Assembly (NCBI GenBank): GCA_965204535.1
Contig: OZ241996.1
Location: forward strand, 640,001-704,000
Direction of reading: 5' to 3'
Source: a bacterium
Lineage (GTDB): Bacteria; UBA8248
Length of the DNA stretch: 64,000 nucleotides
The stretch's first letter is position 1. Every line of letters begins with the position of its first letter. A program made the translations under genes and the position numbers. Positions 13,751-18,982 of this stretch are shown one piece after another. A model generated the notes under the pieces. The model made no database searches and was not told where the DNA came from. It was given only the letters and a program-made list of their open reading frames with translations.

Positions 13751-14284
13751 ATGACTCCCTACATCCTTGTTTTCGGCGGCAGCCGCAGGCCCCAGAACAA
13801 TACCGATAAGGCCCTCGCCCTCGCTCTCGATGAGTTGGGGAAGGGCGATTTCGAGATCAACCGCGTCCACTTGGGCGATCTGGATTTGCCCCTGCCCGGT
13901 GAGCCGAGCGACTCGAAAGATCCCGATATGCTGAAAAGTCTCGTGACGGCGGCGGCGGGCATCCTCATCGCGACGCCCGAGTATCACGGCAGCATCAGCA
14001 GCACGCTCAAGCTGGCGATCGACAACCTGGGCTATCCCTCCACGTTCGAGGGCAAGACCATCGCCATCCTGGGTGTGGCGATGGGGCCGAGCGCGGACAA
14101 CGCCCTCGCGCACCTGAGGCACATTCTCACCCACATCGGCGGAGAGGTTCTGCCCGGTCAGGCTTCCATCGGGAGCGTCCACAAGGTCTTCGACGAGGAT
14201 GGGCATTGCATAGACGAGGCGGCGGAGGCCGCAATCCGGAGCGTCCCCGCCCGGCTGCTCGACCATCTGAAAAATTCATCCTGA
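13751..14284 (+). CDS. NAD(P)H-dependent FMN reductase (SsuE-like)
   Basis: GGSRR, ATPEYHGSISSTLKLAID; adjacent to the LLM gene. Confidence 0.9.
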   Translation: MTPYILVFGGSRRPQNNTDKALALALDELGKGDFEINRVHLGDLDLPLPGEPSDSKDPDMLKSLVTAAAGILIATPEYHGSISSTLKLAIDNLGYPSTFEGKTIAILGVAMGPSADNALAHLRHILTHIGGEVLPGQASIGSVHKVFDEDGHCIDEAAEAAIRSVPARLLDHLKNSS

Positions 14285-14291
14285 AACGAAA

Positions 14292-15047
14292 ATGTCCGAC
14301 TCCGGATCGAGTTTTCTTCACAGAGAAAACGGGAATTCGCTCGCCTGGTTCCGGCTGGAGGGCGAATCGCCCGGCCTGATGTTCCTGGGCGGTTTCCGCT
14401 CGGACATGAGCGGGACGAAGGCGAGCGCACTCGAAGCCCATTGCCGGAAGGTGGGGCGCGCCTACGTTCGCTTCGACTACGGCGGACACGGGGAATCTTC
14501 GGGGAAATTCGAGGAGGGCACCATCGGCGAGTGGGCGGCGGACGCGCTGGCGATCCTGGATGAAGTCGCCCGGGGACCCCAGGTGCTCGTGGGTTCCAGC
14601 ATGGGCGCGTGGATGATGCTGCTCACGGCCCTGGCCCGGCCCGAACGCGTGAAAGGCCTCGTGGGCGTAGCTTCGGGCCCTGATTTTACGGATGGCTTCA
14701 AGAAGCACAGGCTCACCGAGGAGATGGAGCGTGAACTCGACGAGCGGGGATACGTCATGCACGCGCCCAACATCTGGGGGGAGCCGTATCCCATCACAAA
14801 GAAACTGCTCGATGAGGCAGAGAACCATCTGCTCCTGCGCGGCGAGATCGGTGTGACCTGCCCCGTGCGCCTCATCCACGGAATGGCCGATGAAACGATT
14901 TCCTGGGAGGTATCCCTGAAGCTTTCCAATGTACTCAAAAGCGACGACGTGAGGCTCATGCTCGTCAAGGACGGCGGCCACCGGCTCTCGCGGGATGCGG
15001 ACATCGAACTCATCATCCGCACCGCCGAGGAACTGGCGGGCGGGTAG
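14292..15047 (+). CDS. alpha/beta hydrolase (ABHD10-like)
   Basis: GGFRSDMSGTKA, FDYGGHGES, GSSMG, DGGHRLS. Confidence 0.9.
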   Translation: MSDSGSSFLHRENGNSLAWFRLEGESPGLMFLGGFRSDMSGTKASALEAHCRKVGRAYVRFDYGGHGESSGKFEEGTIGEWAADALAILDEVARGPQVLVGSSMGAWMMLLTALARPERVKGLVGVASGPDFTDGFKKHRLTEEMERELDERGYVMHAPNIWGEPYPITKKLLDEAENHLLLRGEIGVTCPVRLIHGMADETISWEVSLKLSNVLKSDDVRLMLVKDGGHRLSRDADIELIIRTAEELAGG

Positions 15048-15134
15048 GGGAAGAAAACTAGGATGTTGTTTTTACAATAATTCTCTTCATACTGATGTCT
15101 TCATCCACCAACCAATGTTTGAAGGGGAGAAAAA

Positions 15135-15941
15135 ATGTATATCATTAGTTCAAGAAAAGATTTTTGGAATGATAACGAAATTTCCAGCAATCCAGACGAA
15201 ATTAAGGAAGTTGTTGATTTTGATGATGTGATTTTAGAACCAAGGGAAACTTCCAATTATGAGTCGTTGATTGCTGACAAAAAGGTGCTCCTGCTTTGTC
15301 ACGGTTATAACAATGAGCCCCATGACGTGATTCGTGCGTATAAAATTGTAGATGAGATGCAGTCAAAACATATAGGTTATTTCGACGTTGTTGTTGGTTA
15401 CACATGGCCGGGTGGTGATGATTTCTTGGATTATTATGCTGCGAAAAACCGGGCTTCGGCGGTGTCGCCAAGGTTCACAAAACTATTGAAAACTACCATA
15501 AGAAATTGTTCAGAACTGGGAATTATGTCCCACAGTACTGGATGCAGGATATCTCTTATTGCATGTGAGAGGTTAAAAGTAATTGCATTCAAAAAGTGCG
15601 ACAAACTCTGGCAGTTTATGATGGCAGCTGCTGTGGATAATGAATCGGTTGAAACTGGTGAGCGGTACTACGATGCCACTTTATATAATGATAACGCCTA
15701 TATCTTTCATTCTAAGAACGATGATGTTTTGGGTATTGGCTTTACGTTAGCCGAGTGGGATTCGGCGCTCGGTTACAGTGGACCTGAGAATATCGACGAT
15801 ATTGTCCCTGCGACTAAAGTCATCAACTGTAAGCATGTGGTCGAATCACATGGTGCGTACAAGCGAACTCAGCAAGTCTATGATTATATTCGTAAAGAGT
15901 TAATGGACTCTCCAGCGAATCAATTCGCAACGCTCCGATAG
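15135..15941 (+). CDS. alpha/beta hydrolase of DUF900 type, AT-rich
   Basis: HGYNN, YTWP, SHSTG, AAAVD, HSKNDDVL, SHGAY; visibly lower GC than neighbours. Confidence 0.75.
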   Translation: MYIISSRKDFWNDNEISSNPDEIKEVVDFDDVILEPRETSNYESLIADKKVLLLCHGYNNEPHDVIRAYKIVDEMQSKHIGYFDVVVGYTWPGGDDFLDYYAAKNRASAVSPRFTKLLKTTIRNCSELGIMSHSTGCRISLIACERLKVIAFKKCDKLWQFMMAAAVDNESVETGERYYDATLYNDNAYIFHSKNDDVLGIGFTLAEWDSALGYSGPENIDDIVPATKVINCKHVVESHGAYKRTQQVYDYIRKELMDSPANQFATLR

Positions 15942-16097
15942 ATGCTTGAGCTTTTTGTGAGAGTTATTATCCATTGTGACAAAAAGGCGAAACCTTCGCA
16001 TGATTCAATTGTTGTTCTGCGGTATCTTGATTCGGGCTGGTTGTCGACGACGCATAAGCCTTGATTTCCGAGAATGCGCCGCACGAGAGGCGAAGAG

Positions 16098-16415
16098 ATG
16101 AAAAAAGAGCGCATGGTGGGTGCGAGGCTCCCTCTGGAACTGGTCCGCGAACTGGAACTCATCGAGAATGTGGAGCAGTCCGACCGTTCGACCACCCTGC
16201 GAAGGCTGCTGTCGAACGCGGTTCAGCAGTGGAAGCTGGAGCACTATTCCCGGCTCTACGGGGACGGAAAGGTCACCCTTGCGCGGGCGGCGCGCGATGC
16301 GGGAGTTTCCCTGTGGGAGATGATGGACTATGTGCGCAGCCGAAAAACGCCGGTCCAATATGACCTCGAAGATCTCGAGCGAGACTTGCAAACCATCCAT
16401 CAAAAGGATGGGTGA
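16098..16415 (+). CDS. RHH + UPF0175-family protein (putative antitoxin, no partner toxin seen)
   Basis: N-terminal VGARLP...DRSTTLRRLL; C-terminal LYGDGKVTLARAARDAGVSLWEM. Confidence 0.75.
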   Translation: MKKERMVGARLPLELVRELELIENVEQSDRSTTLRRLLSNAVQQWKLEHYSRLYGDGKVTLARAARDAGVSLWEMMDYVRSRKTPVQYDLEDLERDLQTIHQKDG

Positions 16416-16633
16416 TCCGTATCCGGTTTGAACGGTTGATACCCACTCGGCCTTCTTGCGCTTTTCATATTTGTGAGCACCGCCCCGGCGCATATGCCTG
16501 AACAAACGGCTTGACATCAACCCTTTGGAATCGTTAGTTTTAATTCGTAAGTTTTCTCTTCTTGTTTACCGCCCCTTTACAATCCTTTGAAGACGGTTTT
16601 CTGCCGGGATGAATTTCCGACCTTGAGGGGGGC

Positions 16634-18004
16634 ATGAAAATCAAAAAGAAACTCTTCAGCCGCATCGGGCGCCGCAAGGAATCTACACCTCCAAAGCCGG
16701 GAGAAGAGGGGTTTGATTTGCCGCCTCCCACGGCCATCAAGCCGGGCGTTCCGTATTCTGAGAACGAGGCGGAGCAAAGCGGCTATGGCTCTCACTTTGA
16801 GTTGTTGGCTTCCGGTGAAACGCCGAGCCCGGATGCGACGGGCGAAACGGATGCGCAAGAAAGCGGCTATGGCCTCGATCTGGAGTTGCTGGCTTCGGAT
16901 GAACGGCAAGGCGCGGAACCGGCGAACGTGGTGGACGCGCCAGAAAGCGGCCATGCCCCCGCCCCGGAATCATTGGCGGCGCCGGTCTCGGAGGAACCGC
17001 CGGGTGAGGTCGGGATACCTCGCGGGTCCGAGCCGCTTGAGGGATATGGTGATGGTTTCGATGTCCTGGCCGTGCCGGAACCGGCTGATTCGCCGGATGC
17101 AGCCGAGCCGCCTCTGAAAGGCGAGGAGGCCGCCTCTGGCGTGACTGCAAGCGATGGGGAGGCGTTAGAGTCCGCTCCTGCGATTCTTGAAGAAAGCGAG
17201 CCGGAAACAATTGGCGATGCCGCGCCTGCGTTTGAGGAAGCCCCCGACGCAGCCGAAAGCGTCGTGGGGGGATATGCGCCCGTGGCGCCGGAGATTCCTG
17301 GAGACAGCGGAGTGCGTGTTATTGACGATGCTGTCTCGGAGGATGATGAACCTCCGGCGGCGTCGATCCCGGATGATTCGGTGGATGAGGCTGTGCCATC
17401 TCACGAGCCCGGGCCGCTTGAGGGATATGGTGATGGTTTCGAGGCCCTGGCCGTGCCGGAACCGGTTGATTCGCCGGATGCGGCCGATTCGGATGAAGAG
17501 CAGGACGAAGCCGTTTCGGTTGTCGAGGAGAAGGTCGTAGAAGTGACTGCATCCGATCTTGCAGTCCCTCATGAAGATGAGCCGGGCGCTACGCCTGGTG
17601 TCGTTTCGGAACATGAGGACGTCACGGACGTAGTTGAAAACGCCGTGGAGGCGGCGGCCTCCGAACCGGAAACCTCTCAGGAAAGCGTGGCGGAGGCGAT
17701 GGTTTCGGAGCCGGAAACGCCTCGGGAGAGCGAGCCGGAGGCCGTCGAGGCGGCTGCCGACTTGCCATTGGAAGAACCGGACGAAGCCTCGGAACCCCCT
17801 CTCCAGGAAAATGGGCTCCTCCCTCTCGTGAGAGATGCGCGCAGAGTCTGGCGGCCCGGCAAGGGGTTCAGCCGGAGCGAACTGCGGGAAGCCGGCTTGA
17901 GTCCCGCCGAGGCTGCGCGCCTGCGCATCCGCGTCGACAAGCGCCGCCGCAACGCGCACCCGATGAACGTCGCAGCCCTCGAAAAAGCGAAGAGCGGCGT
18001 TTGA
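16634..18004 (+). CDS. acidic low-complexity protein with C-terminal ribosomal protein eL13 (L13e)-like domain
   Basis: RBS GAGGGGG; about 390 aa Glu/Ala/Pro/Asp-rich region, then PLVR..RPGKGFSRSELREAGL..AARLRIRVDKRRRNAHPMNV. Confidence 0.85.
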   Translation: MKIKKKLFSRIGRRKESTPPKPGEEGFDLPPPTAIKPGVPYSENEAEQSGYGSHFELLASGETPSPDATGETDAQESGYGLDLELLASDERQGAEPANVVDAPESGHAPAPESLAAPVSEEPPGEVGIPRGSEPLEGYGDGFDVLAVPEPADSPDAAEPPLKGEEAASGVTASDGEALESAPAILEESEPETIGDAAPAFEEAPDAAESVVGGYAPVAPEIPGDSGVRVIDDAVSEDDEPPAASIPDDSVDEAVPSHEPGPLEGYGDGFEALAVPEPVDSPDAADSDEEQDEAVSVVEEKVVEVTASDLAVPHEDEPGATPGVVSEHEDVTDVVENAVEAAASEPETSQESVAEAMVSEPETPRESEPEAVEAAADLPLEEPDEASEPPLQENGLLPLVRDARRVWRPGKGFSRSELREAGLSPAEAARLRIRVDKRRRNAHPMNVAALEKAKSGV

Positions 18005-18111
18005 GGGGGTATTGCTAGGTAAGGGCAGTTGCCATCAAGAATGCCACTCCTTGTGAAGTCTTTTCCCTCCCATGCCGTGATCATTTCATAATCTATACCC
18101 CGACTTCTTCT

Positions 18112-18176
18112 TGCAACGAAAAAATAGTTGCATTTCTAGGGTTTGCTCTATACAATGCAACTAATTTATAGTTGCT
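18112..18176 (+). promoter_or_regulatory. hicAB promoter with two palindromic operators
   Basis: TTGCAT(18128)-N17-TACAAT(18151) overlapped by TGCAAC-N9-GTTGCA (18112-18132) and TGCAAC-N9-GTTGCT (18156-18176). Confidence 0.75.
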
Positions 18177-18214
18177 CTAATGGTTTGAGCCAGTGATATT
18201 TAGACAAGAGACCG

Positions 18215-18469
18215 ATGAGCAAACACGAGAAGCTGCTGGATAAGTTCAGGAAGAATCCAAAAAATTTTACATGGAACGAATTGGTTCAGCTATTGGAGGG
18301 ATTGGGTTATCGGCAGTCAACGGGAGGAAGAACGGGTGGCTCACGGCGAAGGTTTATTCATTCGTTGGCTCCCCGGATTTTCTTTCACCAGCCCCATGCC
18401 GAAGGAAAGTTGAAGCCATATGTCATACGTGAGGTAAGAAAGAAGTTGGAGGAAGGTGGTTTGTTGTGA
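18215..18469 (+). CDS. hicA: HicA toxin
   Basis: FTWNELVQLLEGLGY, GGSRRRF, HQPH, LKPYVI. Confidence 0.9.
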   Translation: MSKHEKLLDKFRKNPKNFTWNELVQLLEGLGYRQSTGGRTGGSRRRFIHSLAPRIFFHQPHAEGKLKPYVIREVRKKLEEGGLL

Positions 18470-18532
18470 AATACATCTAAAGGGGAATGGCGGGGAATCA
18501 GATTTGCTCACGAGGATGGAAAGGGGCCAAAG

Positions 18533-18883
18533 ATGATCGGAGCTGTATTGAGGTACAAGAATTATCAGGGATCCATTGAATATGACGAGGAAAGCGAAAC
18601 CTTGCACGGCAAGGTGCTCCACGTGCGGGATTTGATTACATACGAAGCCGAAACCGCCAGGGAACTCAAGAAATCGTTTCAGGATTCGGTGAACGATTAT
18701 CTGGAAACGTGCGAGGCGGAAGGAATCGAGCCGAACAAGCCATACAGCGGGTCTTTCAACGTGCGTCCGGGACCCGCGCTTCATGAGAAACTTGCCCGTA
18801 TATCGGTCGCGCGCGGCCGGAGCATGAACGCCCTTGTGAAAGAGGTGCTCTCGGATTTCGTCTCGAAGGCGGATGAGGCCTGA
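18533..18883 (+). CDS. hicB: HicB antitoxin
   Basis: YKNYQGSIEY, FQDSVNDYL..C, KPYSGSFNVR..PALH, C-terminal RHH. Confidence 0.92.
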   Translation: MIGAVLRYKNYQGSIEYDEESETLHGKVLHVRDLITYEAETARELKKSFQDSVNDYLETCEAEGIEPNKPYSGSFNVRPGPALHEKLARISVARGRSMNALVKEVLSDFVSKADEA

Positions 18884-18907
18884 AGGTGAGGTAATCCCTG
18901 AAAATCC

Positions 18908-18982
18908 TGGCTCCGGCGGTAGGATTCGAACCTACAACCCATCGGTTAACAGCCGATTGCTCTGCCGTTGAGCTACGCCGGA
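18908..18982 (-). tRNA. tRNA-Asn(GTT)
   Basis: TCCGGCGTAGCTCAACGGCAGAGC..ATCGG-CT-GTT-AA-CCGAT..GGTTCGAATCC..CCGGAGCCA. Confidence 0.97.

Follow-up and report, generated by a model that had tools for sequence, protein, structure and literature searches.

An archaeal-type eL13 domain on a long acidic arm in a bacterial genus, probably descended from a Druantia-like helper protein

The ribosomal protein eL13 (L13e) is counted as a protein of Archaea and Eukarya; the accessible part of Yutin et al. places L13e in a subset of archaea (PMC3353972). In the present study, we analysed a bacterial gene that ends in this domain. The window, that is, the whole stretch of DNA analysed, comprises 64,000 nucleotides (nt) of contig OZ241996.1 (positions 640,001 to 704,000; assembly GCA_965204535.1), and the gene is the open reading frame at 16634-18004 on the forward strand. 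It encodes 456 amino acid residues and reads as first described; the C-terminal peptide that the original prediction, made by a model from the letters, had assigned to eL13 begins at 17816. The protein consists of a basic N-terminus, a long acidic arm, and a C-terminal eL13 head, and we refer to proteins of this layout, including the window protein, as family B. The features and their coordinates are collected in Table 1, where G numbers denote genomes (G000, the window's own genome; others, related genomes) and L numbers denote loci.

The head belongs to the eL13 domain family. Pfam PF01294 (Ribosomal_L13e) matched residues 406-442 (E 3.9e-8, 33.8 bits; gathering cut-off 24.9), and the 65-residue C-terminal piece alone scored 38.5 bits against the same profile. 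AlphaFold2, supplied with 47 homologues, folded only about residues 392-456, with a predicted local distance difference test score (pLDDT) of 82-94 per block. The model of the head superposed on the eL13 chain 3j79_L (Z 9.3, root-mean-square deviation (rmsd) 1.9, 66 residues aligned) and on the archaeal eL13 chain 9e6q_AH (Z 9.2, rmsd 1.8, 64 residues aligned). The eight best of the 13 listed structure chains span the head and all come from ribosome large subunits, and the next chain had a Z of 2.4. Both the profile and the fold thus bear out the predicted eL13 domain. The top sequence match in the PDB was 9e6q_AH (E 2.3e-7), and because this match runs over 47 residues with no gaps, the compact archaeal spacing that had been proposed is correct. 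The NCBIfam equivalog model for 50S L13e (NF008914) matched through positions 25-73 of its 83 with E 7.6e-14 and 51.1 bits, short of the 96 that it demands of a whole protein; by this cut-off, family B is not an L13e equivalog ribosomal protein. The database label 'ribosomal protein L13e' on some of the homologues says more than is known.

Eleven residues of the head (R407, G409, G411, F412, S413, E416, D435, R437, R438, H442, and N445) were 100% conserved in 94 homologues, and the GxGFS..E and D.RR...H..N positions, common to the eL13 groups, are invariant. By sequence comparison, the conserved basic residues of the eL13 groups are also retained in the family B head; the accessible parts of PMC11354259 and PMC12368212 do not give the contacts between core eL13 and rRNA. 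Since the residues common to all eL13 groups are retained, the head is likely to bind nucleic acid, as far as sequence conservation can tell. A stretch of the head (residues 410-429, 17861-17920; GFS..EL..AG) has a weak likeness to the decapeptide repeats of IcmE/DotG, which we took as convergence. The IcmE/DotG matches of the window protein were sums of 14 weak repeat matches, none of which passed singly, and were rejected.

The remainder of the protein is of a very different character. Residues 17-391 contain 26% Asp and Glu and 2% Lys and Arg; their charges sum to -91, and those of the head to +9. The AlphaFold2 blocks across residues 1-390 had mean pLDDT values of 35-56 and no secondary structure, so the acidic disordered stalk of the original prediction is borne out as an arm of 375 residues. 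The basic N-terminus that had been noted is conserved among the family B homologues. Its hydrophobic moment is 0.55 over residues 1-11, where the 99th percentile for 11-residue segments of the arm is 0.53. No hydrophobic signal peptide was evident in the window protein sequence. The arm varies widely in length between homologues, whose whole proteins measure 252-541 residues in the set compared, and a strict motif of the YGxDLExL type occurs one to four times per protein in 94/94 of them and in none of the shuffled arms. Near the N-terminus, P30 is invariant, and P31, P32, A34, and I35 are each conserved in at least 90% of 47 aligned homologues. The arm of the window protein also contains a 132-nt internal duplication (16975-17106 and 17356-17487, 83% identical), through which the third and fourth copies of the arm motif arose. 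Neither the arm nor the N-terminus had homology to other genes of the window's genome, and a complex prediction of arm residues 44-95 with the head (score 0.00) gave no verdict either way.

Table 1. Coordinates of the gene, its parts, and neighbouring landmarks in the window, and of family A partners at other loci
Feature	Position	Strand	Basis
Sigma-70-type promoter-like site	16511..16540	+	TTGACA 16511-16516, 18-nt spacer, TAGTTT 16535-16540
Purine-rich, ribosome-binding-site-like run ahead of the ATG	16625..16632	+	GAGGG-like run conserved in relatives
Family B gene, eL13-headed acidic protein, 456 residues	16634..18004	+	Open reading frame and translation
Basic, weakly amphipathic N-terminal segment, residues 1-16, net +7	16634..16681	+	Charge, hydrophobic moment, conservation
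Acidic Glu/Asp/Ala/Pro arm, 375 residues, predicted disordered	16682..17806	+	Composition, AlphaFold2
Proline motif PPPxAI near the N-terminus	16715..16756	+	Conservation in 47 aligned homologues
Arm motif copy 1, YG-x-D/H-L/F-E-x-L type	16784..16807	+	Pattern search
Arm motif copy 2	16868..16891	+	Pattern search
Arm motif copy 3, looser pattern, inside first copy of the duplication	17045..17068	+	Pattern search
Arm motif copy 4, looser pattern, inside second copy of the duplication	17426..17449	+	Pattern search
eL13 (L13e) core domain, residues 392-456, archaeal-type spacing	17807..18001	+	Pfam, NCBIfam, PDB match, AlphaFold2, fold match
Alpha/beta hydrolase, landmark across the variable interval	14292..15047	+	Pfam; in 15/17 relatives, other 2 end at contig edges
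hicA, neighbour outside the unit	18215..18469	+	Pfam
hicB, neighbour outside the unit	18533..18883	+	Pfam
tRNA-Asn, landmark neighbour	18908..18982	-	Adjoins the family B gene in 17/17 carrier relatives
Family A partners with uS5 (three) or uS2 (one) tail	L112:7116-9932, L118:7560-9839, L119:7188-9737, L114:7296-10148	n/a	Scan of unusual members
Family A partners with sigma-70 regions ahead of the core (two) or weak NusG and SNF2 helicase behind (one)	L111:5427-9476, L116:5481-9554, L106:6675-11945		

A search with the head gave 94 proteins of 250-798 residues, the query included, and nearly all share the basic N-terminus, the variable acidic arm, and the terminal head; NCBI names three of them as Nitrospinae or Nitrospinota and one as Rhodospirillaceae. 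A search for short forms returned 19 proteins, all of the family B type by identity, with no named archaeal protein. When 61 genomes were searched, 19 gave a match, all in the window's genus, and the match in G007 was a different protein (family A, see below). Family B itself occurs in 18 of the 23 genus genomes, in one to three copies per carrier genome, and in 0/14 other genomes of the taxonomic family; a profile run against the phylum as a whole (51 genomes) detected none beyond the genus. The host is bacterial, the window's genome having tmRNA, a bacterial 23S rRNA, bL28, bL35, and bL9. No viral copies were confirmed in IMG/VR for the family A or the family B alignment (two patterns each). 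None of the 20 listed sequencing runs that hold the sequence is an RNA dataset, which has no bearing on expression.

A chimeric insertion from an archaeal contig had been named as the result that would undo the assignment. Single contigs from the runs X1 and X2, which may be the source samples, span 14000-18947 without differences, and 17 relatives carry the gene at the same tRNA-Asn; we therefore rejected a chimera or misassembly. In 15 of these 17 relatives, the N-terminus and the head at this main site are in one frame (one of the others is cut by a contig end and one is broken). Six genomes have extra copies, seven in all, which group together in a tree (100/99); four of the seven are in frame. 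At L033 (G003), L038 (G014), and L045 (G006), the usual ATG is absent and the frame is open, so that an upstream or unusual start may serve.

The gene appears to be maintained. The mean pairwise ratio of nonsynonymous to synonymous substitution rates (dN/dS) among related genomes was 0.19 in the head, compared with 0.41 in residues 1-45 and 0.47 in the arm (residues 46-391), and two neighbouring enzymes gave 0.22 (the hydrolase) and 0.11. Purifying selection thus maintains, throughout a bacterial clade, the core of a domain counted as archaeal and eukaryotic. Selection keeps a basic head that retains all positions common to the eL13 groups, a short basic amphipathic N-terminus, and a charged arm of free length with motifs. 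The distances between family B genes follow those of three genes nearby (rho 0.56 over 16 loci; permutation p 0.001), and the codon use of the head is host-like (42nd percentile). Upstream, TTGACA is found in 21/23 aligned loci, followed by a conserved TA-x-x-x-T hexamer, and we regard this pair as a predicted sigma-70-type promoter; the site was not among the listed matches of a consensus promoter scan of the window. The 3' end of the host 16S rRNA carries CCTCCTT, in keeping with the ribosome-binding-site-like run ahead of the ATG.

The head also led to a second family. Among 1.84 billion representatives, it had 285 hits, and the best 150 of these comprised family B, short archaeal-type eL13 proteins, and many proteins of about 700-1170 residues with the domain at the C-terminus. 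After the members of family B, the best hits included proteins of 689-814 residues with a C-terminal eL13 (e.g., P0101, E 1.7e-11). We designated as family A the helper proteins that consist of an amphipathic N-terminus, an acidic arm, an immunoglobulin (Ig)-like core, and a tail, and that are encoded upstream of a DruE-like helicase. In G007, the family A gene overlaps the start of the gene for a 1425-residue helicase that matches the PADLOC model of Druantia DruE with E 4e-154 and has DEAD, Helicase_C, and MZB domains and no PLD match in Pfam, a domain set that rests on this one helicase. An alignment of 13 family A proteins led to 67 loci in GTDB genomes of 11 named phyla, with a DruE-like helicase directly downstream in 62/67 and an eL13 tail, in some cases degenerate, in 49/67. 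The arm has a median length of 147 residues and 20% Asp and Glu (39 measured), and the core is, by fold, a chain of Ig-like domains.

The tail of family A is exchangeable. Among 20 unusual members scanned, a whole uS5 was found twice, the C-terminal domain of uS5 once, and uS2 once, and further partners carry other domains of the host machinery (Table 1). The tail in G009 is the omega subunit of RNA polymerase (Pfam Rpb6, E 6.5e-8; L138:7742-10235, G009:C10), and behind it lies the out-of-frame back half of an eL13, running up to the helicase start; the arrangement suggests an exchange of tails still in progress. The family has a second clade, known from metagenomes and largely low in GC, which (50 loci, L145-L194; hhalign probability 99 to family A) has a helicase of about 1600 residues in 42/50 loci and an eL13 tail in 26/50. 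Its other tails are zinc-finger-like, and two members have weak N-terminal HsdR-type matches. This clade may be where eL13 was first captured. In the window's genus, the family A pair is present only in G007 and G009, both without family B, and these 2/23 genomes are also the ones with a full-length DruE-like match. G044, which belongs to another order, retains short, decayed pieces of a family A gene and its helicase about 3 kb from a tRNA-Pro (L139:8305-8622). A protein of 160 residues (P0170) has a family-A-like amphipathic N-terminus joined to an eL13 head by a short Ser/Asp arm, the core being absent; from its sequence, it is possibly a second, independent core-less form.

Family A resembles Druantia type III, in particular its compact III-B or 'type III-like' branch. 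In the accessible text of four articles, Druantia type III consists of DruH and DruE (10.64898/2026.05.13.724758; 10.64898/2026.05.12.722862; 10.1101/2025.09.15.676423; PMC13316683). DruH is described there as built of Ig-like domains and binding single-stranded DNA at its C-terminal domain (10.64898/2026.05.13.724758; 10.64898/2026.05.12.722862), and the III-B DruE as having no PLD domains (10.64898/2026.05.13.724758). Common to both are two overlapping genes, a DEAD, Helicase_C, and MZB helicase of about 1400 residues without PLD, and an Ig-like partner. No match to the DruH model of PADLOC was obtained with 40 proteins, the window protein included, or with 8 more, and no DruH chain was among the listed structure matches of family A. 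A family A partner compared with the helicase partner from Clostridium gave an hhalign probability of 0.2, and the Clostridium protein also had no DruH match. The word 'ribosomal' is absent from the main texts of 10.64898/2026.05.13.724758, 10.1101/2025.09.15.676423, and PMC13316683, as far as these were accessible. The literature examined, bioRxiv supplements (including that of Bell et al.) being outside its scope and possibly listing such partners, made no mention of eL13 in bacteria or of Druantia proteins with ribosomal-protein tails, and the architecture of family B was described nowhere in it.

Family B probably descended from a family A helper, and the support for this descent is moderate. 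The two families have in common an amphipathic or basic N-terminus, an acidic disordered arm, and an eL13 tail with the same end point: the protein ends 48 residues past the GKGFS motif in 89/94 family B proteins and 47-48 residues past it in 37/43 family A tails, versus 3/69 archaeal-type proteins, which run a median of 62 residues past the motif, many with basic tails. W406 is present in 100% of family B and 73% of family A; in the archaeal-type set, which we presumed to be archaeal from length and sequence (six members have cluster mates named archaeal), Trp does not rank in the top three at this position. In a tree, a starred branch joined family B with 25/31 family A tails (97/80), and in a smaller tree it joined all 18 of 18 (99/96). 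Both trees rest on 66 columns; the former left out four helper and four archaeal-type rows, most of them on long branches, and used a sample of the remainder, and the latter value is partly circular because its 18 helper rows were picked after the former tree had been seen and the divergent low-GC clade was left out. The direction from A to B is suggested by distribution, since family A forms two deep clades in many phyla and family B is one subclade of one genus. In addition, the family A pair of G007 sits at the same tRNA-Asn as the family B locus.

Several results weigh against this descent. The mean identity of the window's domain was 0.52 to helper tails and 0.53 to archaeal-type sequences. 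Held-out profile tests placed family B only 0.0-4.5 bits toward the helper profile, where held-out helpers scored 18-24 and archaeal-type sequences -11 to -13. A tree of 117 rows left the placing of family B open, and approximately unbiased (AU) tests rejected neither a clade of helpers with family B (p 0.167) nor a helper-only clade (p 0.115). Comparison of the arm and N-terminus with family A gave 0 profile hits, and 2/120 N-termini exceeded 3 bits; in G000, the match to the family A profile is limited to the head. With homology confined to the head, convergence could account for the common layout. The 25 loci searched downstream of family B contained no DruE remnant, and at the tRNA-Asn the orientation of family B is opposite to that of the G007 pair. 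The equal identities, the weak profile preference, the AU tests, and the lack of homology outside the head would also suit a different origin, in which eL13 came straight from an archaeon, the arm and N-terminus arose in place, and RNA binding has no link to defence. The shared end point and W406, the starred branches, and the occurrence of the helper system within the genus, in one case at this very tRNA, make this origin distinctly unlikely. Thus, the idea of a horizontally acquired, repurposed RNA-binding domain stands insofar as an archaeal-type domain appears to have been repurposed in a bacterium, and its immediate source is more likely a Druantia-like bacterial family than an archaeon.

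Unlike family A, family B has no Ig-like core of about 450 residues and no downstream helicase; its arm motifs and predicted promoter are its own, and a single subclade carries it as a fixed gene. A full-length DruE-like helicase is absent from 18/18 carriers (one partial match of 35% was found in G010), so family B is not working as the known pair does. Apart from the probable tail, the window contains no part of Druantia type III: there is no DruE beside the partner and no Ig-like chain. Family B is therefore not a Druantia system, though it probably descended from one. If the descent is true, an anti-phage component was domesticated after loss of its effector, and defence islands may be a route by which ribosomal domains pass between domains of life.

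As to function, we tentatively favour a domesticated remnant of a Druantia-like helper that acts as a membrane-docked tether for RNA or ribosomes, a reading that we regard as possible rather than probable. Loss of the Ig-like core and of the partner helicase from the ancestral helper would have left the arm and the eL13 head. Of the roles in the original prediction, a ribosome-binding or hibernation-like factor and an RNA-mimic-tethered modulator stay candidates. The basic N-terminus would dock on the inner membrane, a step to which we give nearly an even chance. At the far end of the arm, the head would hold a structured RNA, most likely ribosomal RNA, although rRNA as the ligand is itself a tentative choice. 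The repeated YGxDLExL motifs would dock a protein partner. A similar layout is seen in E. coli FtsY, which has a basic amphipathic N-terminus, a long acidic disordered A domain, and a folded domain acting at the ribosome; family B has no sequence relation to FtsY and no GTPase, and the genome's own FtsY (L207, G000:C1, about 390000) is a short form without the long acidic domain. Weighing against the tether are the hydrophobic moment of the N-terminus, which is below the family A median of 0.71, and the failure of AlphaFold2 to model it as a helix. Three of the seven extra copies are broken, and 5/23 genus genomes have no family B; these five stand further off within the genus (hydrolase identity 67-70%, versus 72-96% in carriers). 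The 23S rRNA of three carriers, compared with that of two non-carriers, showed no group-specific insertion or deletion beyond one base.

The main rival is a stand-alone immune decoy or sensor, in which the head catches phage nucleic acid or protein and the arm mimics nucleic acid, mops up basic phage proteins, and perhaps signals to an unlinked host factor. The likely descent from a DruE partner, the several host-machinery domains held in the family A tail slot, the variable tRNA interval with its toxin-antitoxin genes, the fast-changing arm, and the extra copies are all in keeping with such a role. We nevertheless consider it unlikely, because the carriers lack the full-length helicase, the protein has no catalytic domain and no PADLOC match, and family B occupies one site through a subclade with distances that track its neighbours, versus the patchy distribution of family A.

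The fold and the invariant core residues, together with the conserved predicted promoter and the purifying selection, could also indicate a lineage-specific accessory ribosomal protein, with the head at the archaeal eL13 site of the bacterial 50S subunit and the arm trailing in the cytoplasm. Compared with archaeal eL13 (9e6q_AH), with which the head shares core sequence, compact spacing, and fold, family B is bacterial, consists of the core only behind about 390 extra, mostly acidic N-terminal residues, and has no basic C-terminal extension, ending right after the core. Its gene lies outside ribosomal operons in one to three copies, with a whole-gene codon adaptation at the 17th percentile, and scores below the equivalog cut-off. 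Because bL28 (22/23 genus genomes), bL35, and bL9 (both in G000) are present and there is no carrier-specific 23S insertion, family B fills no visible gap among these proteins, and a ribosomal protein of this kind is improbable. A related and bolder version of the tether, in which eL13 is seated on the ribosomes of this clade and an acidic leash of 200-500 residues holds them at the membrane, would mean that eL13 passed from archaea through an anti-phage system to housekeeping; we rate it as rather unlikely. Being small, soluble, and simple to express, the 65-residue head offers a way to test both whether a bacterial ribosome can be bound by eL13 and what role the exchangeable ribosomal-protein tails of Druantia-like partners play. 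The 23S gene of G000 (L203, near 1259) is without five bases seen in four other aligned 23S genes, two of them from carriers, which is either real or an assembly error.

A host-directed effector had also been suggested; in this setting it would enter sponge cells and compete with the host eL13 in large-subunit assembly. A eukaryote-type target exists in the host, close relatives of family B are present in a sponge metagenome (run X3), and the Lys/Arg-rich N-terminus presumably resembles a nuclear localisation signal. Against this suggestion, one marker family each for type III/flagellar (FHIPEP), type VI (VipB), and type IV (CagE/TrbE/VirB4) secretion was found in 0/23 genus genomes, no signal peptide is evident, and the spacing of the head is archaeal, not eukaryotic; we consider the effector very improbable.

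A partnership with the neighbouring HicA RNase had been proposed as well. In favour of a partner or regulator, hicA is adjacent and co-directional in the window, and a hicB fragment starts within about 40 nt downstream of family B in seven main-site and five extra-copy loci. This proposal is hardly credible, since hicA is intact in only 6/18 main-site loci and was seen in 0/7 extra-copy loci. Where it is missing, hicB is partial or contains a stop, and hicB is absent in five. The codon use of hicA is foreign (0th percentile), and the inverted repeat just ahead of it (22 nt, 18113-18175, 86% complementary; likely the HicB operator) suggests separate regulation.

Two other genes of the interval were noted. 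A UPF0175 antitoxin-like gene (16074-16415) has no PIN partner in the window, and a weak PIN match adjoins it in L042. A DUF900 hydrolase gene (15135-15941) has foreign codon use (G+C content at third codon positions, 0.41) and is unmatched in 25 related regions; in G002, its slot is occupied by a gene for a 544-residue HNH protein (L029:8843-10477).

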